Assembly (NCBI GenBank): GCA_014381465.1
Contig: JACNLP010000042.1
Location: 64,220 to 128,219 of the forward strand
DNA length: 64,000 bases
Direction: 5' to 3'
Source: Flavobacteriales bacterium
GTDB taxonomy: Bacteria; Bacteroidota; Bacteroidia; Flavobacteriales; BACL11
The position numbers and the translations under genes are program-made. Shown here piece after piece: positions 47,618 to 53,177 of the stretch; position 1 is the stretch's first letter; every line of letters begins with the position of its first letter. The notes below the pieces were generated by a model. That model had not been told where the DNA came from, made no database searches, and worked only from the letters and a program-made list of their open reading frames with translations.

Positions 47618-48931
47618 ATGAGAACAAAATCAACAAAGAAAAATAAGATTAATGTCATCACATTGGGCTGCTCCAAAAATGTGTATGATTCAGAAGTGTT
47701 GATGGGGCAATTGACTGCAAATAAAATGGAGGTTGAGCATGAATCTGAAAAAGAGGATGCTAATATTGTTGTGATTAATACTTGTGGTTTTATTGATAAC
47801 GCAAAGGAAGAGTCCGTCAATACAATACTAGAACAAGCAGAGCGGAAAGAGGCAGGAATGATTGATAAACTCTATGTTACGGGTTGTCTATCAGAAAGAT
47901 ATAAGCCAGATTTAGAAAGAGATATTCCAAATGTTGATCAGTATTTTGGAACTACTGATTTGCCCAAATTATTAAAGGTTTTAGGTGCTGATTATAAGCA
48001 TGAGTTATTAGGAGAAAGGTTAACTACAACTCCTAAACACTATGCCTATTTAAAAATTGCTGATGGCTGTGATAGACCTTGTTCTTTTTGTGCAATTCCT
48101 CTTATGAGAGGGAAACATAAATCTACTCCTATTGAACAATTAGTAATTGAGGCTAAAAACTTAGCTAAAAATGGCGTTAAAGAATTAATTCTTATTGCTC
48201 AGGATTTAACTTTTTATGGTTTAGATATTTATAAAAAGAGAAGGCTAGCTGATTTGCTTATTAAGCTTTCTAAGGTTGAAGGAATAGAATGGATTCGTTT
48301 GCATTATGCTTTTCCAACAGGATTTCCGCAAGATGTATTGGATGTGATTAGAGATAATGATAAGGTGTGTAATTATATTGATATTCCTTTGCAGCATATT
48401 AATGATGAGATTTTAAAATCCATGAAAAGAGGAACTTCTCATCAGAAGACTAATGACTTGTTAAAAGCGTTTAGAGAAAAAGTGCCAAATATGGCAATTC
48501 GTACTTCTTTAATTGTGGGGTATCCTGGTGAAACTCAGGAGAGGTTTCAGGAACTAAAACAATGGGTGCAGGATACAAAGTTTGATAGACTAGGAGTATT
48601 TACTTATTCGCATGAAGAAAATACTTCTGCTCATGTTTTGGAGGATGATGTTTCTGATGAAATTAAAAAAGCAAGGCAAGAAGAAATTATGGACTTGCAA
48701 ACTCATATTTCTTGGGAATTGAATCAAAAGAAAATAGGAAAGACTTTTAAAGTATTGTTCGACCGTAAAGAAGGGGATTATTTTATTGGGCGTACTGAAT
48801 TTGACAGTCCTGATGTGGATAATGAAGTATTAATAAAAGCAACTGATACTTATATAAGAATGGGTGATTTTGCTAATGTGAAAATTGAAAAAACCGACCA
48901 TTTTGATTTGTATGGAGTAGTTGTTTCCTAA
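47618..48931 (+). CDS. rimO: Ribosomal protein S12 methylthiotransferase RimO
   Basis: 437 aa. MTTase N-domain (VITLGCSKN...NTCGF), radical-SAM CSFCAIPLMRG, and a C-terminal TRAM domain. Confidence 0.9.
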   Translation: MRTKSTKKNKINVITLGCSKNVYDSEVLMGQLTANKMEVEHESEKEDANIVVINTCGFIDNAKEESVNTILEQAERKEAGMIDKLYVTGCLSERYKPDLERDIPNVDQYFGTTDLPKLLKVLGADYKHELLGERLTTTPKHYAYLKIADGCDRPCSFCAIPLMRGKHKSTPIEQLVIEAKNLAKNGVKELILIAQDLTFYGLDIYKKRRLADLLIKLSKVEGIEWIRLHYAFPTGFPQDVLDVIRDNDKVCNYIDIPLQHINDEILKSMKRGTSHQKTNDLLKAFREKVPNMAIRTSLIVGYPGETQERFQELKQWVQDTKFDRLGVFTYSHEENTSAHVLEDDVSDEIKKARQEEIMDLQTHISWELNQKKIGKTFKVLFDRKEGDYFIGRTEFDSPDVDNEVLIKATDTYIRMGDFANVKIEKTDHFDLYGVVVS

Positions 48932-49839
48932 AAATCCCTCACCAACATAACAGAATAAGCATATTTATTAGCCAACTGATTGCCGTGCAAGTAGCGGTAA
49001 ATTGGGAAGTCTCCTAGTACAGAAAGATTCCATTTTTGGGCAATGGTATAATTAATTTGAGGAGCAATATACAATTGAGAACCCCCAGTAGTAATCATTT
49101 CTATTTCTCCCCAATTGTCTTTTTGTTTGTATTCTCCTCTAAGCTGCAGTATTCCCATCCAATTTTGGTTGATGGATTTTGCAGCAAACAATGAACTGTA
49201 ATAGGCATTTCCGTAACGATAGGATTCTACATTATAACCATTTGTTTCTAGTCGGTTAATCAAAAATAAATGCCACCCACTTTTAATGAATCCTTTGTAC
49301 AAAAAAGTTTGAGCCACCAAACCATAAGCCATTGTAGAGGGTTGAATATCTAGTGGTAAAGGAATATCATCTTCCATTTTATATTCTTGCGAAAAAGGTA
49401 TTTTACCACCTAATGATGCCGTAAATTCTACTTCATTAGTTGTGTGTTTGTAGAGTTGCGTTTTTACAGAAATTACGATATTACTGAGTCCAGAAGTAGT
49501 TTTTGTAGAACTCTTGTCGGCAGCATCTACTAAATATTGTGTTTTGTGCAGAAAATAACCTAACTCTGCTTCTACATTTATTTTTTCAGCCAAACCATAA
49601 CTAATGGTGCTTCCGAAAAAACTAAAATCGGCTTCTTTCAAATTCATCATGTTTTCCACAGGCTCACTACCACTATAACGGGTATCGGAAAAACTATAAC
49701 GATAATAGGAAATAGTCCGTAAAGTATTTTCAGGCACAATACCCATATTGGTAGAGCCGCCCACAGGATTTCCTGGTGAACAACATTGGCTCAATCCTAC
49801 AATTGGAAGACTTAGTAAAAGAATAATCAGATAACGCAC
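48928..49839 (-). CDS. Predicted outer-membrane beta-barrel (transporter/MetA-phenol-degradation-like) with N-terminal Cys-Cys
   Basis: 303 aa. Signal peptide, mature N-terminus QCCSPGNPVGG, alternating aromatic/polar beta-strand pattern, and a C-terminal ...YSVMLVRDF. Last gene of the mer-like operon. Confidence 0.5.
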   Translation of the reverse strand: MRYLIILLLSLPIVGLSQCCSPGNPVGGSTNMGIVPENTLRTISYYRYSFSDTRYSGSEPVENMMNLKEADFSFFGSTISYGLAEKINVEAELGYFLHKTQYLVDAADKSSTKTTSGLSNIVISVKTQLYKHTTNEVEFTASLGGKIPFSQEYKMEDDIPLPLDIQPSTMAYGLVAQTFLYKGFIKSGWHLFLINRLETNGYNVESYRYGNAYYSSLFAAKSINQNWMGILQLRGEYKQKDNWGEIEMITTGGSQLYIAPQINYTIAQKWNLSVLGDFPIYRYLHGNQLANKYAYSVMLVRDF

Positions 49840-49840
49840 C

Positions 49841-50323
49841 TTATTTTTGCTTGATGTATTTCACCCCATTTTGGATGTAGAAAGTTCCGATAGGTAAAGT
49901 ATTTAAATCTTTTATTTCTTTTCCCAAAAGGTCAAAAATCCTGTTATCCATTTCTTTTGCGCCATTAATATTTTCAATTCCGGAAATAGTTTGTGTATAA
50001 ATAACTCCAGTTGAACCACTATTGAAATCAAGGTGTAAATAAGTTCCTTCTACATTTATAACTACACTATAAATGCAGGAAGAGCAAGTAAAAGAGTAGT
50101 TCCAAGTATTTCCACCACTTGGAACGGAAGTTGTTTCAGAATAATGTATTCCATTTGCAGTATTCAAATTCAGGCTGAATTCGACAATATCATTCACCTC
50201 TACTAATAGAGAATCCTTTGAAAAACCATTACCCCCTACTTGTATGTAATGGGTAGTTTGTGCATTTACAGTTGCTACTAGAAATAGTAGTGCAATGAAA
50301 ATTGTTTGTTTAATTGTTTTCAT
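49841..50323 (-). CDS. Small secreted protein with T9SS type-A C-terminal tail and CxxC
   Basis: 160 aa. Signal peptide MKTIKQTIFIALLFLVATVNAQ, FTCSSCIY, and the tail ...NRIFDLLGKEIKDLNTLPIGTFYIQNGVKYIKQK. The N-domain is vaguely cupredoxin-like (weak). Confidence 0.5.
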   Translation of the reverse strand: MKTIKQTIFIALLFLVATVNAQTTHYIQVGGNGFSKDSLLVEVNDIVEFSLNLNTANGIHYSETTSVPSGGNTWNYSFTCSSCIYSVVINVEGTYLHLDFNSGSTGVIYTQTISGIENINGAKEMDNRIFDLLGKEIKDLNTLPIGTFYIQNGVKYIKQK

Positions 50324-50345
50324 AATTTTATGTTTTTAGTTAGTA

Positions 50346-50573
50346 TTAACAGCAATTATCACTACACGCTTTTGGGTCTAATTGAATAGGAGGACAAGGT
50401 ATTGTTCCGTAAGAACAATAGACACAACAATCATCATTTATTGGTTTGAGAATTTCTTTACAGCCCTTACACTCATAAAACCATTGGCAAGAATCGGTTG
50501 GCATGATTTCTGTTTCTTTATGCCCACATTTTGGACAACAAATCTCTGAGTTTAATTCTACTTTATTGTTCAT
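50346..50573 (-). CDS. GDCCVxC-domain protein (mer-operon-associated Cys-rich zinc-ribbon-like protein)
   Basis: 75 aa. Has ICCPKCGHKE...CQWFYECKGCKEILKP...DDCCVYCSYG. Confidence 0.7.
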   Translation of the reverse strand: MNNKVELNSEICCPKCGHKETEIMPTDSCQWFYECKGCKEILKPINDDCCVYCSYGTIPCPPIQLDPKACSDNCC

Positions 50574-51150
50574 CTTTTATCCCTATTACTTTAAAACTTG
50601 TTTTTTTACTGATTACTTTTTTGATTTTCTTCAATGTTAATTGCTCATTATCATAAACGATAGTTGCTGTACCTTCTTTTGCTGATGAGGAGCAACTTAT
50701 CACCCCTTTTGTATTGTTGAGTGCATGGTTGATGTGGTTTTCACAAGAGCCACAAGTCATTCCTTCAATGCTTAGTACTACTTTGCTGCTGTCTTCTGAA
50801 AATACACCTTGCTCTATTGGTGTATTATCATAAAAATTTCCTGAGAATGAAGGAAAGGATAACATGCCAATGGCAAAAATGCTTATGATAGTTAAAAAGG
50901 TTTTTGTTTCCATAAAATTGGTTTTTTGATTTATACAACAGTCTTTCTGTGGTTTTAGTTTTTGATACCAAGCATAGCCCAATACTAGTATTGTGAACCC
51001 TATTAAATAGGGACGAAACGGTTCCATCCAACTTAGATTGGTGGCTGCTCCAGTTCCTCCTGCAATAAGGGCTAAAAGCGGAACAATACAGCAAAGGGAA
51101 GAGGCAATGGCTGCAACTATTCCCGATCCTATTAGTGTCTTTTCTTTCAT
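50563..51150 (-). CDS. MerTP-like mercuric/thiophilic-metal transport protein (MerT-like membrane domain + HMA domain)
   Basis: 195 aa. IASSLCCIVPLLALIAGG...LSWMEPFRPYLIGFTILVLGYAWYQKL matches flavobacterial MerTP. C-terminal HMA LSIEGMTCGSCENHINHAL. Confidence 0.75.
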   Translation of the reverse strand: MKEKTLIGSGIVAAIASSLCCIVPLLALIAGGTGAATNLSWMEPFRPYLIGFTILVLGYAWYQKLKPQKDCCINQKTNFMETKTFLTIISIFAIGMLSFPSFSGNFYDNTPIEQGVFSEDSSKVVLSIEGMTCGSCENHINHALNNTKGVISCSSSAKEGTATIVYDNEQLTLKKIKKVISKKTSFKVIGIKDEQ

Positions 51151-51536
51151 TATATAGCGATTGATTTTAACACTTCCCCTTTTTCAATGCGCTTAAAAAT
51201 ATCCTTAAAAAGATCCGCAAATTCAGCCGTTAAGTAATAATGAATAAGTGTTCCTTTTTTTATACCGTTTATAATACCTCTGTCTTTCATCTTTCGCAAA
51301 TGTTGCGAGATGGCAGGAGCTTTCATAGCTAGTATATCACTCATGTCACAGACGCATAAGTTTGTATGCTGATTGAGTAAATACAAGATTTTTAATCGCA
51401 CATTATTCCCCACTAAATCAAGGGCGCTTGCCATTAAATTAAGGTTATTTTCTACTGCATCAATTTGTTTTTTGCAATCATCAATCTGCTCCAAATTGGC
51501 AAATGCTCTAATGCAATTTTCTGCTTTTGTTTTCAT
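51150..51536 (-). CDS. ArsR/SmtB-family metalloregulator
   Basis: 128 aa. Winged HTH with the alpha3 metal site NLCVCDMSDIL and recognition helix ISQHLRKMKDRG. TAATG overlap with the MerTP gene. Confidence 0.8.
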   Translation of the reverse strand: MKTKAENCIRAFANLEQIDDCKKQIDAVENNLNLMASALDLVGNNVRLKILYLLNQHTNLCVCDMSDILAMKAPAISQHLRKMKDRGIINGIKKGTLIHYYLTAEFADLFKDIFKRIEKGEVLKSIAI

Positions 51537-51540
51537 AATG

Positions 51541-51548
51541 CAAATGTA
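51541..51548 (-). promoter_or_regulatory. Candidate -7 box TACATTTG for the ArsR-led operon, leaderless geometry
   Basis: The minus strand reads TACATTTG-CATT-ATG, with 4 nt between the box and the start at 51536. Confidence 0.45.
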
Positions 51549-51552
51549 TATA

Positions 51553-51568
51553 AAATAATTTATTATTT
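51553..51568. promoter_or_regulatory. Candidate operator: perfect 7-2-7 palindrome AAATAAT-TT-ATTATTT
   Basis: Lies immediately upstream of the putative -7 box of the ArsR operon, in the arsR/bshC divergent spacer. AT-rich, so a chance occurrence is possible. Confidence 0.3.
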
Positions 51569-51631
51569 AAGCAAATACTTAAATATATTTTTGTTTATAT
51601 CAATAGTTAATACTATCTACTGCTTTTTGTA

Positions 51632-51639
51632 TATTTTTG
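51632..51639 (+). promoter_or_regulatory. Candidate -7 box TATTTTTG for bshC
   Basis: TAnnTTTG match 5 nt before the ATG at 51645 and 14 nt before the ATG at 51654. Confidence 0.45.
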
Positions 51640-51644
51640 CCAAG

Positions 51645-53177
51645 ATGAGAAGGATGAAAATTCCACATAAAAATACCAATAGTTTTTCAAAATTAGTTTT
51701 GGATTACTTGAATAAAGATGAGAAACTAAACTCTTTTGTTAATCATTTTCCATCTATTGAAAATTTTGAAAAGCAAATAAACGAAAAGCAGAATCATCCT
51801 GTAAATAGAAGTGTATTGGTTGAGGTTTTAAAAGAGCAAAACGCTAATTTTTCACTTTCAGAAAAAACGAAAAATAATATTGAGTCTCTTCTAAATGAGA
51901 ATACTTTTTCCATAACCACAGGGCATCAGTTGTGTTTGTTTACAGGGCCTTTATATTTTATTTACAAAATAATTTCTACTCTTAACTTATCAGAACAATT
52001 ACAAGAAAAGTATCCTAATAATAATTTTATTCCTGTTTTTTGGATGGCTACTGAAGACCATGATTTTAAGGAGATAAATCACATCAATTTATTTGGTAAA
52101 AAGATAGTTTGGGATAGTAAGCAAAGTGGCGGGGTTGGAAAAATGAGTTTGAGGGGCGTTGAAAGCGTCTTAACTGAGCTAAAATCAATATTAGGAAATT
52201 CAGAAAATGCGGATAAATTAATCTCTCTTTTTGAAAAAACATATTTAAAACATAATAATTTAGCTGATGCCACTCGCTATTTGGTAAATGAATTGTTTGG
52301 AAAAAATGGTTTAGTGATATTGGATGGGGATGACAAAAGATTTAAAAAGCAATTTATTCCAATTATTAAAAAGGATATTTTAGTGCAAGGATTTGAAAAA
52401 ACAATAACTGAATGCAGTAATGATTTAGCTGTAAATTATAAAACCCAAGCATTTGTTCGTTCAATCAATTTTTTCAGGCTATCTGATGGGAGCAGGGAAT
52501 TGATTAAAGGAGGTACTGATGAAAAAGAAATAGCTGAAAAGCCAGAAAAATTTAGCCCAAATGTGCTAATGCGCCCATTGTATCAAGAAATAATTTTGCC
52601 AAATATTGCTTATATTGGAGGTGGAGCAGAGGTGGCTTACTGGATGCAACTAAAAACTGCTTTTAAACAAGAGGAAATTCCATTTCCCATTTTGGTTTTG
52701 CGTAATTCAGCAATCTTATTAAATGAAAAGCAGATGCTAAAACTTAATAAATTAGGTATTGAAGTTGAAGATTTATTTTTAGAAGAAACAGAATTACACA
52801 AACAATATATTTTATCAGAAGCATCTTCTAAATTTTCTTTGGAAAAAGAAAAGAAAGAATTAGAGAAATTATTTTCAAAATTATTGAATAAAACAACAGA
52901 TAAAAGTTTGCAATCTACCATAAAAGCAGAACAACAAAAGCAGTTGAAATCATTCCAGAAAATGGAACAAAAGCTATTGAAATTTGAAAAGAAAAAACAT
53001 GAATCTGCACTGCAGCAAATCTCTAAATTAAAATCAAATTTATTTCCAAATAATTCTTTGCAGGAACGCTTTGATAATTTTATTCCTTATTATTTAAAAG
53101 ATGGGGAAAACTTTATTGAAATGTTAAAAGATAATTTTGACCCTCTAGATACAAATTTTGTAGTTTTGTCGCACTAA
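51645..53177 (+). CDS. bshC: Bacillithiol biosynthesis cysteine-adding enzyme BshC
   Basis: About 510 aa from [41 protein letters not shown]... (alternative start 51654). Has [18 protein letters not shown] and GGGAEVAYW motifs and a C-terminal coiled coil. The track's 51465 start runs through the divergent promoter region. Confidence 0.8.

Follow-up and report, generated by a model that had tools for sequence, protein, structure and literature searches.

What would an operon of the mer type, lacking the reductase MerA, do with an exported protein and an outer-membrane barrel? The question is raised by five tightly packed minus-strand open reading frames (ORFs) that span positions 51536-48928 of a 64,000-nucleotide stretch of DNA from a Flavobacteriales bacterium (contig JACNLP010000042.1 of GenBank assembly GCA_014381465.1), hereafter the window. 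In order of transcription they encode a regulator of the ArsR/SmtB type, the membrane protein MerTP, a small Cys-rich GDCCVxC protein, an exported protein of 160 residues and the barrel. By their coordinates the first three ORFs, starting from arsR, overlap by 1 nt and by 11 nt, and the last two follow after gaps of 22 nt and 1 nt, exactly the spacings given in an original prediction from the bare sequence, and hidden Markov models (HMMs) back four of the five identities it had assigned, i.e. ArsR/SmtB, MerTP, GDCCVxC and the barrel, the last with a marginal score. A further claim, that every product carries a CC or CxxC motif, holds for four of them and fails for ArsR, whose motif is CxC (LCVCD). 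A CC or CxxC occurs in only 10 of the 50 other large ORFs of the window, and five Cys-motif genes in a row are unlikely to have come together by chance (about 0.2^5). Our answer, to which we assign a probability of roughly one half, is that the locus is an operon under ArsR repression that handles a thiophilic metal, with Hg(II) the likeliest candidate, representing a reductase-less Bacteroidota variant of mer with an outer-membrane (OM) module added. The novelty lies in this module, a family of predicted 12-stranded barrels that have Q-C(-C) at the N-terminus and that, together with a Cys-bearing exported partner, recur in Bacteroidota mer operons.

The barrel family and its exported partners

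The last gene of the operon (48928..49839, minus strand, GTG start) encodes a 303-residue protein with the C-terminus VRDF, which matches PF13557 (Phenol_MetA_deg) only marginally at 24.5 bits vs. a gathering score of 22; the same family is matched by 14 of 31 members of the barrel family. Its AlphaFold2 model (predicted local distance difference test, pLDDT, of 86.8; predicted template-modelling score of 0.81) found FapF as the best Foldseek match in the PDB (5o65, E 4e-13), with Pput2725 (4rl8; template-modelling (TM) scores 0.70/0.78, E 6e-13) and autotransporter barrels also among the structural matches, and the protein is predicted on this basis to be a 12-stranded channel resembling COG4313 proteins and FapF. 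There was no match to PF11751 (PorP/SprF) at E<=1. Besides 54 close homologues, an exhaustive profile search returned 344 representatives of the family (clusters at 50% identity) at E<=1e-30 and 1336 at E<=1e-10, currently annotated as hypothetical proteins or as 'transporter'. A tblastn search of a plasmid collection with the barrel yielded one distant 'transporter', on a plasmid of Candidatus Manganitrophus, whereas mer plasmids of Bacteroidota were not among the matches.

The most conserved feature of this family lies outside the barrel wall, in the segment that directly follows the predicted signal-peptidase I site. In the window this predicted mature N-terminal arm, rich in Gly and Pro, reads QCCSPGNPVGG (residues 18-28; 49756..49788, minus strand), with Q18 and C19 invariant in the family alignment and the Cys pair at residues 19-20. 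The conservation of this motif is also evident from an unbiased search, where 135 of 138 full-length representatives begin the arm with QC and 90 of 138 with QCC. The residue preceding the Gln is A, S or G, which fits the Bacteroidetes 'Q-rule', whereby a Gln that becomes exposed at the N-terminus is converted to pyroglutamate by cyclisation (PMC5837995, PMC10653852), and the mature protein probably starts with pyroGlu-Cys-Cys. Only about 20 residues precede strand 1 in the model. In Pput2725, about 14 N-terminal residues fold into the lumen from the periplasmic side and occlude it (PMC4493636), thus making a lumen-resident Cys arm plausible in the barrel of the window as well.

The original prediction had linked the barrel to merTP, and we evaluated this linkage by scanning one genome per GTDB species with a narrow barrel alignment, calling ORFs in the resulting 58 loci, searching these with the window proteins and clustering the neighbours. 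By title these loci are mostly from Bacteroidota lineages, with a few metagenome-assembled genomes (MAGs) named after other phyla. At most of them a small exported protein is encoded directly upstream of the barrel on the same strand, with gaps mostly between -53 and +18 nt. These partners belong to several apparently unrelated families, comprising C1, a lipoprotein of ~120 residues with an Ig-like domain (22 loci), C4, of ~225 residues with the motif SDNPxCFxGCxGDTR and a weak C-terminal domain (CTD) of the type IX secretion system (T9SS) (12 loci), C5, of ~258 residues with a thioredoxin-like CxxC and a T9SS CTD (11 loci), and the cupredoxin-like partner discussed below, which is confined to the window and L001. 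A rough neighbour-joining tree of the barrels follows partner type, as expected for a co-evolving pair.

The co-localisation with merTP held up: in 12-13 of the 58 species-level loci the pair is embedded in, or closes the 3' end of, an ArsR-MerTP operon transcribed in the same direction, with operon-like and mostly tight spacing (12 of 48 when only loci with at least 3 kb of upstream flank are counted). A MerA homologue (HMA + Pyr_redox_2 + Pyr_redox_dim) is found nearby in 10 barrel loci and MerB (PF03243) in three of them as well, with both assignments confirmed by Pfam and phmmer. Examples, with spacings in angle brackets, are ArsR<-4>MerTP<3>MerP<24>MerA<2>C4<3>barrel in L057, ArsR-MerTP-MerP-u131-MerA<9>C49<12>C4<1>barrel in L044, MerA<-11>C1<5>barrel in L029, MerP-C1<-4>barrel<17>MerA in L007 and MerA...MerB<37>C1<-41>barrel in L003. 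The MAGs behind the mer-linked loci bear the labels Cyclobacteriaceae, Flavobacteriales, Chitinophaga/Chitinophagaceae, Bacteroidia and Rhodothermales; the barrels of these loci are spread over at least four clades of the rough tree. The 13 mer clusters fall within 0.73 Mb of flanking DNA, which by our estimate is far above what random Bacteroidota sequence would hold. The Cys content of the pair varies along with this linkage, as exemplified by: 1) QCC in 13/13 mer-linked barrels; 2) a vicinal CCGG in 5/5 mer-linked C1 partners vs. 1/17 C1 partners that are not mer-linked; 3) single-Cys barrels (QCL, QCF), which pair almost exclusively with C1 partners devoid of a Cys pair.

Several other genes were noticed in the course of this survey. 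The C5 partners (L004-L014, L021, L026, L058) have a thioredoxin fold with N-C-x-P-C and GMGMPT motifs and reside in housekeeping neighbourhoods; a surface thioredoxin-like protein alongside a barrel with a Cys-Cys arm suggests an OM thiol or redox function that would be independent of mercury. A membrane protein of 244-294 residues with the motif GMMTGPPMGPMVGLFG is encoded between MerA and MerB or C4 (L003:6200-6934, L048:1435-2319), a Cys-rich protein of 275-390 residues between MerP and MerA (L029:2448-3620, L052:2480-3307) and a 240-residue protein, the C-terminus of which is T9SS-like, between MerA and C4 (L036:6543-7265, L044:6539-7261). After the barrel, three mer-linked loci carry a repressor of the CsoR/RcnR type (PF02583) with a C-terminal CPGNCG extension (L036:8915-9295, L042:8907-9215, L057:11093-11467), with RND efflux genes nearby, giving these loci the appearance of multi-metal islands.

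The partner in the window is the 160-residue protein (49841..50323, minus strand), which has a signal peptide ending VNA|Q and no match in Pfam or NCBIfam. Of its eight homologues, seven share at least 66% identity, the eighth being more distant, and H25, H60, C80, C83, H97 and D99 are invariant in the alignment. The two Cys belong to the CSSC motif at residues 80-83 (50075..50086, minus strand), the conservation of which in all eight homologues is in line with the original prediction. A PDB sequence search was without significant result. The AlphaFold2 model is of moderate confidence (pLDDT 63.8), and all 50 of the listed Foldseek PDB matches are cupredoxins or proteins with a cupredoxin domain, the best being plastocyanin (7pcy; E 2.9e-5, TM-score on target 0.70, root-mean-square deviation 2.7 A); residues ~24-111 are thus predicted to form a cupredoxin-like beta-sandwich. 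Upon alignment to plastocyanin by hand, H60 corresponds to His37, with the C-terminal Cys/His/Met loop replaced by YLHLDFNSG. As judged by this model, the protein is cupredoxin-like with a non-canonical set of His and Cys residues.

That this protein is exported and bears CSSC agrees with the original prediction, but the T9SS tail that had been ascribed to it could not be confirmed. The protein does have a 49-residue C-terminal extension, the last ~35 residues of which resemble the final strands of a CTD by eye. None of the approaches taken gave a significant result: 1) neither NCBIfam nor Pfam detected a CTD, with no match to TIGR04183 or PF18962 in the protein or its homologues even at E<=10; 2) hhalign of its family against the CTD-bearing partner families C4 and C5 gave a probability of 2%; 3) a T9SS CTD HMM that we built from the CTD-bearing partners, with shuffled sequences as controls, scored the eight 160-residue proteins at 1.1-4.8 bits, compared to 3.3 and 5.8 bits for the 95th and 99th percentiles of the shuffled set. 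We also considered whether the protein is homologous to C4 and C5 and rejected this, as only the signal peptides align, which indicates that families without common ancestry fill the partner's place. The most distant homologue, P0062, keeps the invariant His and Cys and is flanked by a 184-residue unknown protein and a PSCyt1 cytochrome-like protein, with neither mer genes nor a barrel (L143:747-1952, L144:1289-2371); this context hints at an electron-transfer ancestry of the 160-residue partner.

Regulator, transporter and cytoplasmic protein of the operon

The first gene (arsR; 51150..51536, minus strand, 128 residues) encodes a protein with a match to PF01022 and 66.5 bits vs. a cutoff of 55 for NF033788, possessing both the winged-helix HTH_5 domain and the alpha3 CxC thiolate sensor site of ArsR/SmtB metalloregulators. 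It is 35-48% identical to the regulators of operons that contain MerA or MerB, and Cys8, Cys61 and Cys63 (CIR...LCVCD) are invariant in the alignment, whether the operon is linked to MerA or not. Upstream of the arsR ATG, at a distance of 28-49 nt, is a perfect 8-6-8 inverted repeat, TATTTAAG-N6-CTTAAATA (51564..51585), a putative ArsR operator that occurs as a single copy in the window. The same palindrome precedes arsR in L001, L007, L010, L029, L036, L044 (twice), L052, L057, L061, L094/L096 and L116, which include MerA-containing as well as MerA-less operons. Given that operator and regulator Cys residues are the same in operons encoding MerA, we consider the operon of the window to belong to the same type of regulon.

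A second element, TACATTTG (51541..51548, minus strand), lies 4 nt upstream of the arsR ATG and matches TAnnTTTG, the -7 promoter element of Bacteroidetes; the box recurs at the identical 4-nt distance in L001, L061, L094 and L116. If TACATTTG acts as the promoter box, as its position would have it, then its closeness to the ATG suggests that the arsR transcript has no leader, or almost none, and that the operator is located just upstream. ArsR, by way of Cys8, Cys61 and Cys63, would bind the palindrome beside this promoter and be released by metal. Homology of the regulator and conservation of the operator are direct observations, from which we infer metal induction of the operon. Between the five genes there is neither a second operator nor a plausible terminator, pointing to a single metal-derepressed transcript, and by these features the genes look like one operon. 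A scan of the window for sigma-70 promoters and terminators was uninformative, as expected for Bacteroidota. ArsR-type control of mer operons in Bacteroidetes has been noted before (PMC3466566).

MerTP (50563..51150, minus strand, 195 residues) scores as an equivalog of NF033556 (220.8 bits vs. a cutoff of 180) and matches PF02411 and PF00403, which by HMM makes it a dedicated Hg(II) uptake protein of the MerT/MerP type. Its Cys residues comprise a CC at 20-21 in the MerT domain, a second CC at 71-72 and GMTCGSC in the C-terminal HMA domain. The next gene (50346..50573, minus strand) encodes the GDCCVxC protein (NF041374, 94.5 bits vs. a cutoff of 40), with 13 Cys in 75 residues and no signal peptide. 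In the window the motif reads DDCCVYC, and CCVYCSYG is invariant in the alignment; that selenocysteine variants exist is implied solely by the term '(seleno)protein' in the NCBIfam name. Against the PDB only weak zinc-ribbon matches were obtained, none of them significant in the sequence search. This protein looks like a small metal-binding sink, presumably a cytoplasmic, zinc-ribbon-like acceptor, and may functionally substitute for MerA in this capacity.

According to the original prediction, merA and merB are absent from the window, whereas the first three genes are a front end normally followed by MerA. The former statement proved correct, as tblastn with Bacteroidota MerA and MerB sequences taken from related loci matched only the HMA domain of MerTP. 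The latter did not. In a metagenome scan with a GDCCVxC alignment, from which we examined 80 loci out of at least 527 confirmed matches, MerA adjoins GDCCVxC in two of the 80, or in one of the 50 that have at least 1.5 kb downstream, with the other case residing on a shorter contig. MerA-less ArsR-MerTP-GDCCVxC units are hence common. GDCCVxC comes after MerT, MerTP or MerP in 25-31 of the 80 loci; ArsR-MerTP-GDCCVxC recurs as a free-standing three-gene unit (L061, L094, L096, L098, L099, L109, L116), MerR-MerT-MerP-GDCCVxC is a second recurrent arrangement, and some metagenomic copies lie beside P-type ATPases, RND efflux genes or regulators of the MerR type. The usual setting of GDCCVxC is a MerA-less MerT(P)-GDCCVxC unit. 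The flavobacterial operon of Tenacibaculum discolor 9A5 is reportedly ArsR-MerTP-MerP-MerA, with MerP rather than GDCCVxC as the third gene. No barrel was found at any of the 80 GDCCVxC loci, and no barrel locus combines GDCCVxC (present in the window, L001, L010 and L042) with MerA (present in 10 loci).

Relatives of the 160-residue protein at 87-88% identity keep its gene in the same operon. Some of these operons have six genes, with an extra gene for a protein of 347-378 residues between GDCCVxC and the 160-residue protein (L001:6460-7504, L139:3945-4988, L140:3945-4988); in L057 (12584-13651) the extra gene is placed between HMA and MerT-like genes. The predicted mature N-terminus of this protein is AQGCPACSNP and its C-terminus resembles that of OM proteins. 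It has no Pfam match, and as hhalign against the barrel family gave a weak probability of 16%, we do not claim homology to the barrel; it may be a second family of Cys-N-terminal OM barrels tied to mer-like genes.

The operon does not differ in GC content from the rest of the window, where Rfam and tRNA scans gave no matches. Its flanks are housekeeping genes, with a rimO-like gene convergent at 47618-48931 and guaA also nearby. Divergent from arsR is a bshC-like gene (51465-53177, plus strand), a homologue of which (bacillithiol synthesis; PF10079 in L141/L142) adjoins arsR in one group of relatives as well (L141:2095-3630) and is not present beside the operon in L001, L139 and L140. It may or may not be significant that a gene for a low-molecular-weight thiol neighbours an operon for a thiophilic metal. 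In two relatives a gene of the 23S_rRNA_IVP/bAvd family is inserted between rimO and ftsY by the operon (L139:7751-8110, L140:7751-8176); it is absent from the corresponding site in the window.

A proposed thiol relay and its rivals

Hg(II) moves by ligand exchange between Cys pairs, those of MerT TM1, MerP and the flexible C-terminal tail of MerA. On this pattern we surmise that the last two genes provide the OM step, with an exported Cys-bearing partner, here the CxxC protein of predicted cupredoxin fold, and the 12-stranded barrel forming a two-gene cassette. The partner would capture metal at or near the cell surface, and the Cys-Cys arm, situated in or under the barrel lumen, would hand it to the periplasmic HMA domain of MerTP by thiol ligand exchange. 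MerTP would then carry the metal across the inner membrane via its two CC pairs, as is established for MerT, and the 13-Cys GDCCVxC protein would accept and hold it in the cytoplasm in place of MerA. The partner-barrel pair is portable: most of its Bacteroidota copies stand alone, and a minority have been recruited by mer operons, some of them complete (ArsR-MerTP-MerP-MerA(-MerB)) and others, like that of the window, devoid of MerA. Such a relay from the outside to the cytoplasm is plausible; we infer in which direction the metal travels, where the arm sits and how mobile it is, that the partner binds metal, and what GDCCVxC does. More tentative, and in our judgment less likely than not, is the broader proposal that this represents a new kind of OM device, in which a mobile arm inside a 12-stranded barrel hands a thiophilic cargo across the membrane from thiol to thiol, through covalent or coordinate bonds. 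It would be the first dedicated OM step of a mer system, and GDCCVxC proteins would be the cytoplasmic endpoint that enables MerA-less mer operons to function. In mer operons the device would carry Hg(II), whereas pairs with a thioredoxin-like partner might serve a different metal or pass on disulfide reducing equivalents.

Several points weigh against a mercury relay. The main one is that merT and merP in cells without merA confer hypersensitivity to mercury, from which there are three ways out: either GDCCVxC neutralises the metal, or the genome has a merA at another site, or the operon carries something other than mercury. The arm itself is not placed by the model, residues 9-27 of the barrel having a pLDDT below 50. 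Within 8 kb of the pair, mer and metal genes are lacking in about 78% of cases, the pairs sitting instead after DUF1573 and Fib_succ_major genes or in housekeeping neighbourhoods, suggesting that the module is general, with a basic function not specific to mercury, and has been recruited by mer operons. The QCx barrels, which have no second Cys, form essentially one clade, so that the covariation of Cys residues amounts to few independent events. Lastly, COG4313 channels are thought to carry hydrophobic molecules rather than ions (PMC4493636).

Four other explanations deserve to be weighed against this reductase-less mer operon with an OM module. According to one, which we consider unlikely, the barrel exports or anchors the partner, much as FapF does for FapC or barrels of the PorP/SprF type do for T9SS cargo; the surface thiols of the complex would trap Hg(II) outside the cell, and the N-terminal Cys of the barrel would hold the partner through a disulfide bond or a metal site common to both. 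Such surface sequestration is consistent with a polypeptide secretion channel, FapF, as the top structural match and autotransporter barrels among the others, with a partner gene that is always directly upstream and a partner family that tracks barrel phylogeny, with the T9SS CTDs of C4 and C5, and with the pairing of QCC barrels and Cys-pair partners. On the other hand, there are no fap genes, no coiled-coil N-domain and no match to PF11751; the C1 lipoproteins as well as C4 and C5, having export signals of their own, do not need a private pore; and exclusion of mercury leaves co-transcription with an importer, MerTP, unexplained.

The predominance of non-metal contexts among barrel copies, along with membership in PF13557 and a model similar to Pput2725, for which hydrophobic substrates are assumed, might also point to a generic channel of the COG4313 type, which would raise the permeability of the OM to neutral Hg(SR)2, HgCl2 and organomercurials while the Cys residues are structural or redox-related. 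The presence of MerB in three barrel loci speaks for such a channel as well. We find this improbable, since it accounts neither for an arm, QC(C)SPGNP, that is near-invariant, nor for a partner that is obligatory and bears Cys, nor for the gain of CCGG in mer-linked C1 proteins.

More improbable again is that the name MerTP misleads and that the operon serves homeostasis or detoxification of another thiophilic metal (Cd, Zn, Cu(I) or As(III)). The absence of merA from the window, the copies of GDCCVxC beside P-type ATPases, RND efflux genes and MerR-type regulators, the CsoR-like and RND genes flanking some barrel loci and the cupredoxin-like fold of the partner, with its hint at copper, all speak for another metal. 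Arguing for mercury are the regulator, with its three Cys, and the operator, which are common to operons encoding MerA and MerB, and the score of MerTP as an NF033556 equivalog; as to copper, the canonical type-1 ligand loop is not kept in the 160-residue protein by hand alignment. Finally, chance adjacency, i.e. an unrelated unit downstream of a three-gene metal operon, can be dismissed as highly improbable, for even though ArsR-MerTP-GDCCVxC often ends at GDCCVxC, with the barrel in 0/80 GDCCVxC loci, and the barrel-partner pair usually stands alone, the genes here are spaced by as little as 22 nt and 1 nt and no site resembling a terminator separates them, and 12-13 mer-linked cases were encountered in ~0.73 Mb of flanks across several orders and barrel clades.

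A mercury-handling operon with an OM module would have implications beyond this locus. Textbook models of mer have mercury crossing the OM by diffusion and MerA as indispensable, and the locus and its relatives raise two testable points: the recurrence, in Bacteroidota mer operons, of an uncharacterised OM barrel with a Cys-bearing surface partner, and a widespread MerA-less unit (regulator, MerT/MerTP and GDCCVxC) in which a small 13-Cys protein stands in the place of the reductase. Should the thiol relay be true, it would bear on the uptake, sequestration and exchange of mercury by marine and soil Bacteroidota, would supply parts for mercury bioaccumulation or biosensing, and would give a function to a barrel family of 344 representatives (E<=1e-30).

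Comparison with known systems

The claim in the original prediction that the role of the last two genes is undescribed agrees with the literature that we searched, where no OM component of mer operons was found. Searches on GDCCVxC, on PF13557 with mercury and on flavobacterial MerTP likewise gave nothing relevant, with most subscription journals lying outside the search, so that 'undescribed' is provisional.

Among characterised channels, Pput2725 of COG4313 (4RL8; PMC4493636) shares with the barrel of the window the PF13557 match and the 12 strands predicted for the latter; in Pput2725 a segment before strand 1 occludes the lumen. Sequence identity between the two is ~11%, and described COG4313 proteins, whose links are to the catabolism of hydrophobic compounds, have no QC(C)SPGNP arm, no obligatory partner with Cys residues encoded upstream and no association with mer. 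FapF (5O65; PMC5557850) is the best Foldseek match (E 4e-13) and is 9-10% identical, but the window barrel has neither flanking fap genes nor a periplasmic coiled coil, and the partners in this family are folded, Cys-bearing lipoproteins or T9SS-type proteins. As the likeness is confined to the fold, with no fap operon and no coiled coil, we rejected an amyloid secretion channel of the FapF type. SusC/SusD-type pairs are similar in that the gene for an OM barrel adjoins that for a probable substrate-binding protein, either a lipoprotein or surface-exposed; their barrels are unrelated in fold and TonB-dependent with 22 strands, as opposed to 12 strands and no TonB box here, and in our pair the partner gene comes first.

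Canonical mer operons of Tn21/Tn501 (MerR-T-P-(C/F)-A-D) resemble the proposed relay in that Hg(II) is passed between Cys pairs, from MerP to MerT to a cytoplasmic acceptor, with vicinal Cys pairs on flexible or membrane segments (MerT TM1, the C-terminal tail of MerA). They differ in having an activator, MerR, rather than an ArsR repressor, and MerA as the endpoint; with no MerA found by tblastn in the 64-kb window, the locus falls outside the canonical definition of mer. In the canonical model mercury diffuses across the OM with no OM protein involved, and the reviews of mer operon diversity that we consulted depict no such protein and name none among mer functions (PMC3466566, PMC8261052).

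Closest in layout to the operon of the window is that of T. discolor 9A5, which is said to begin likewise with a co-directional ArsR/SmtB-type regulator followed by MerTP and to continue with MerP and MerA, with no described OM component. Compared to that operon, the window has no MerP gene and no MerA, and has instead GDCCVxC, the cupredoxin-like CxxC protein and the OM barrel. Set beside these systems, the best-supported description of the locus is a mer-type transport and sensing operon to which an OM/surface thiol module and a GDCCVxC endpoint have been added.

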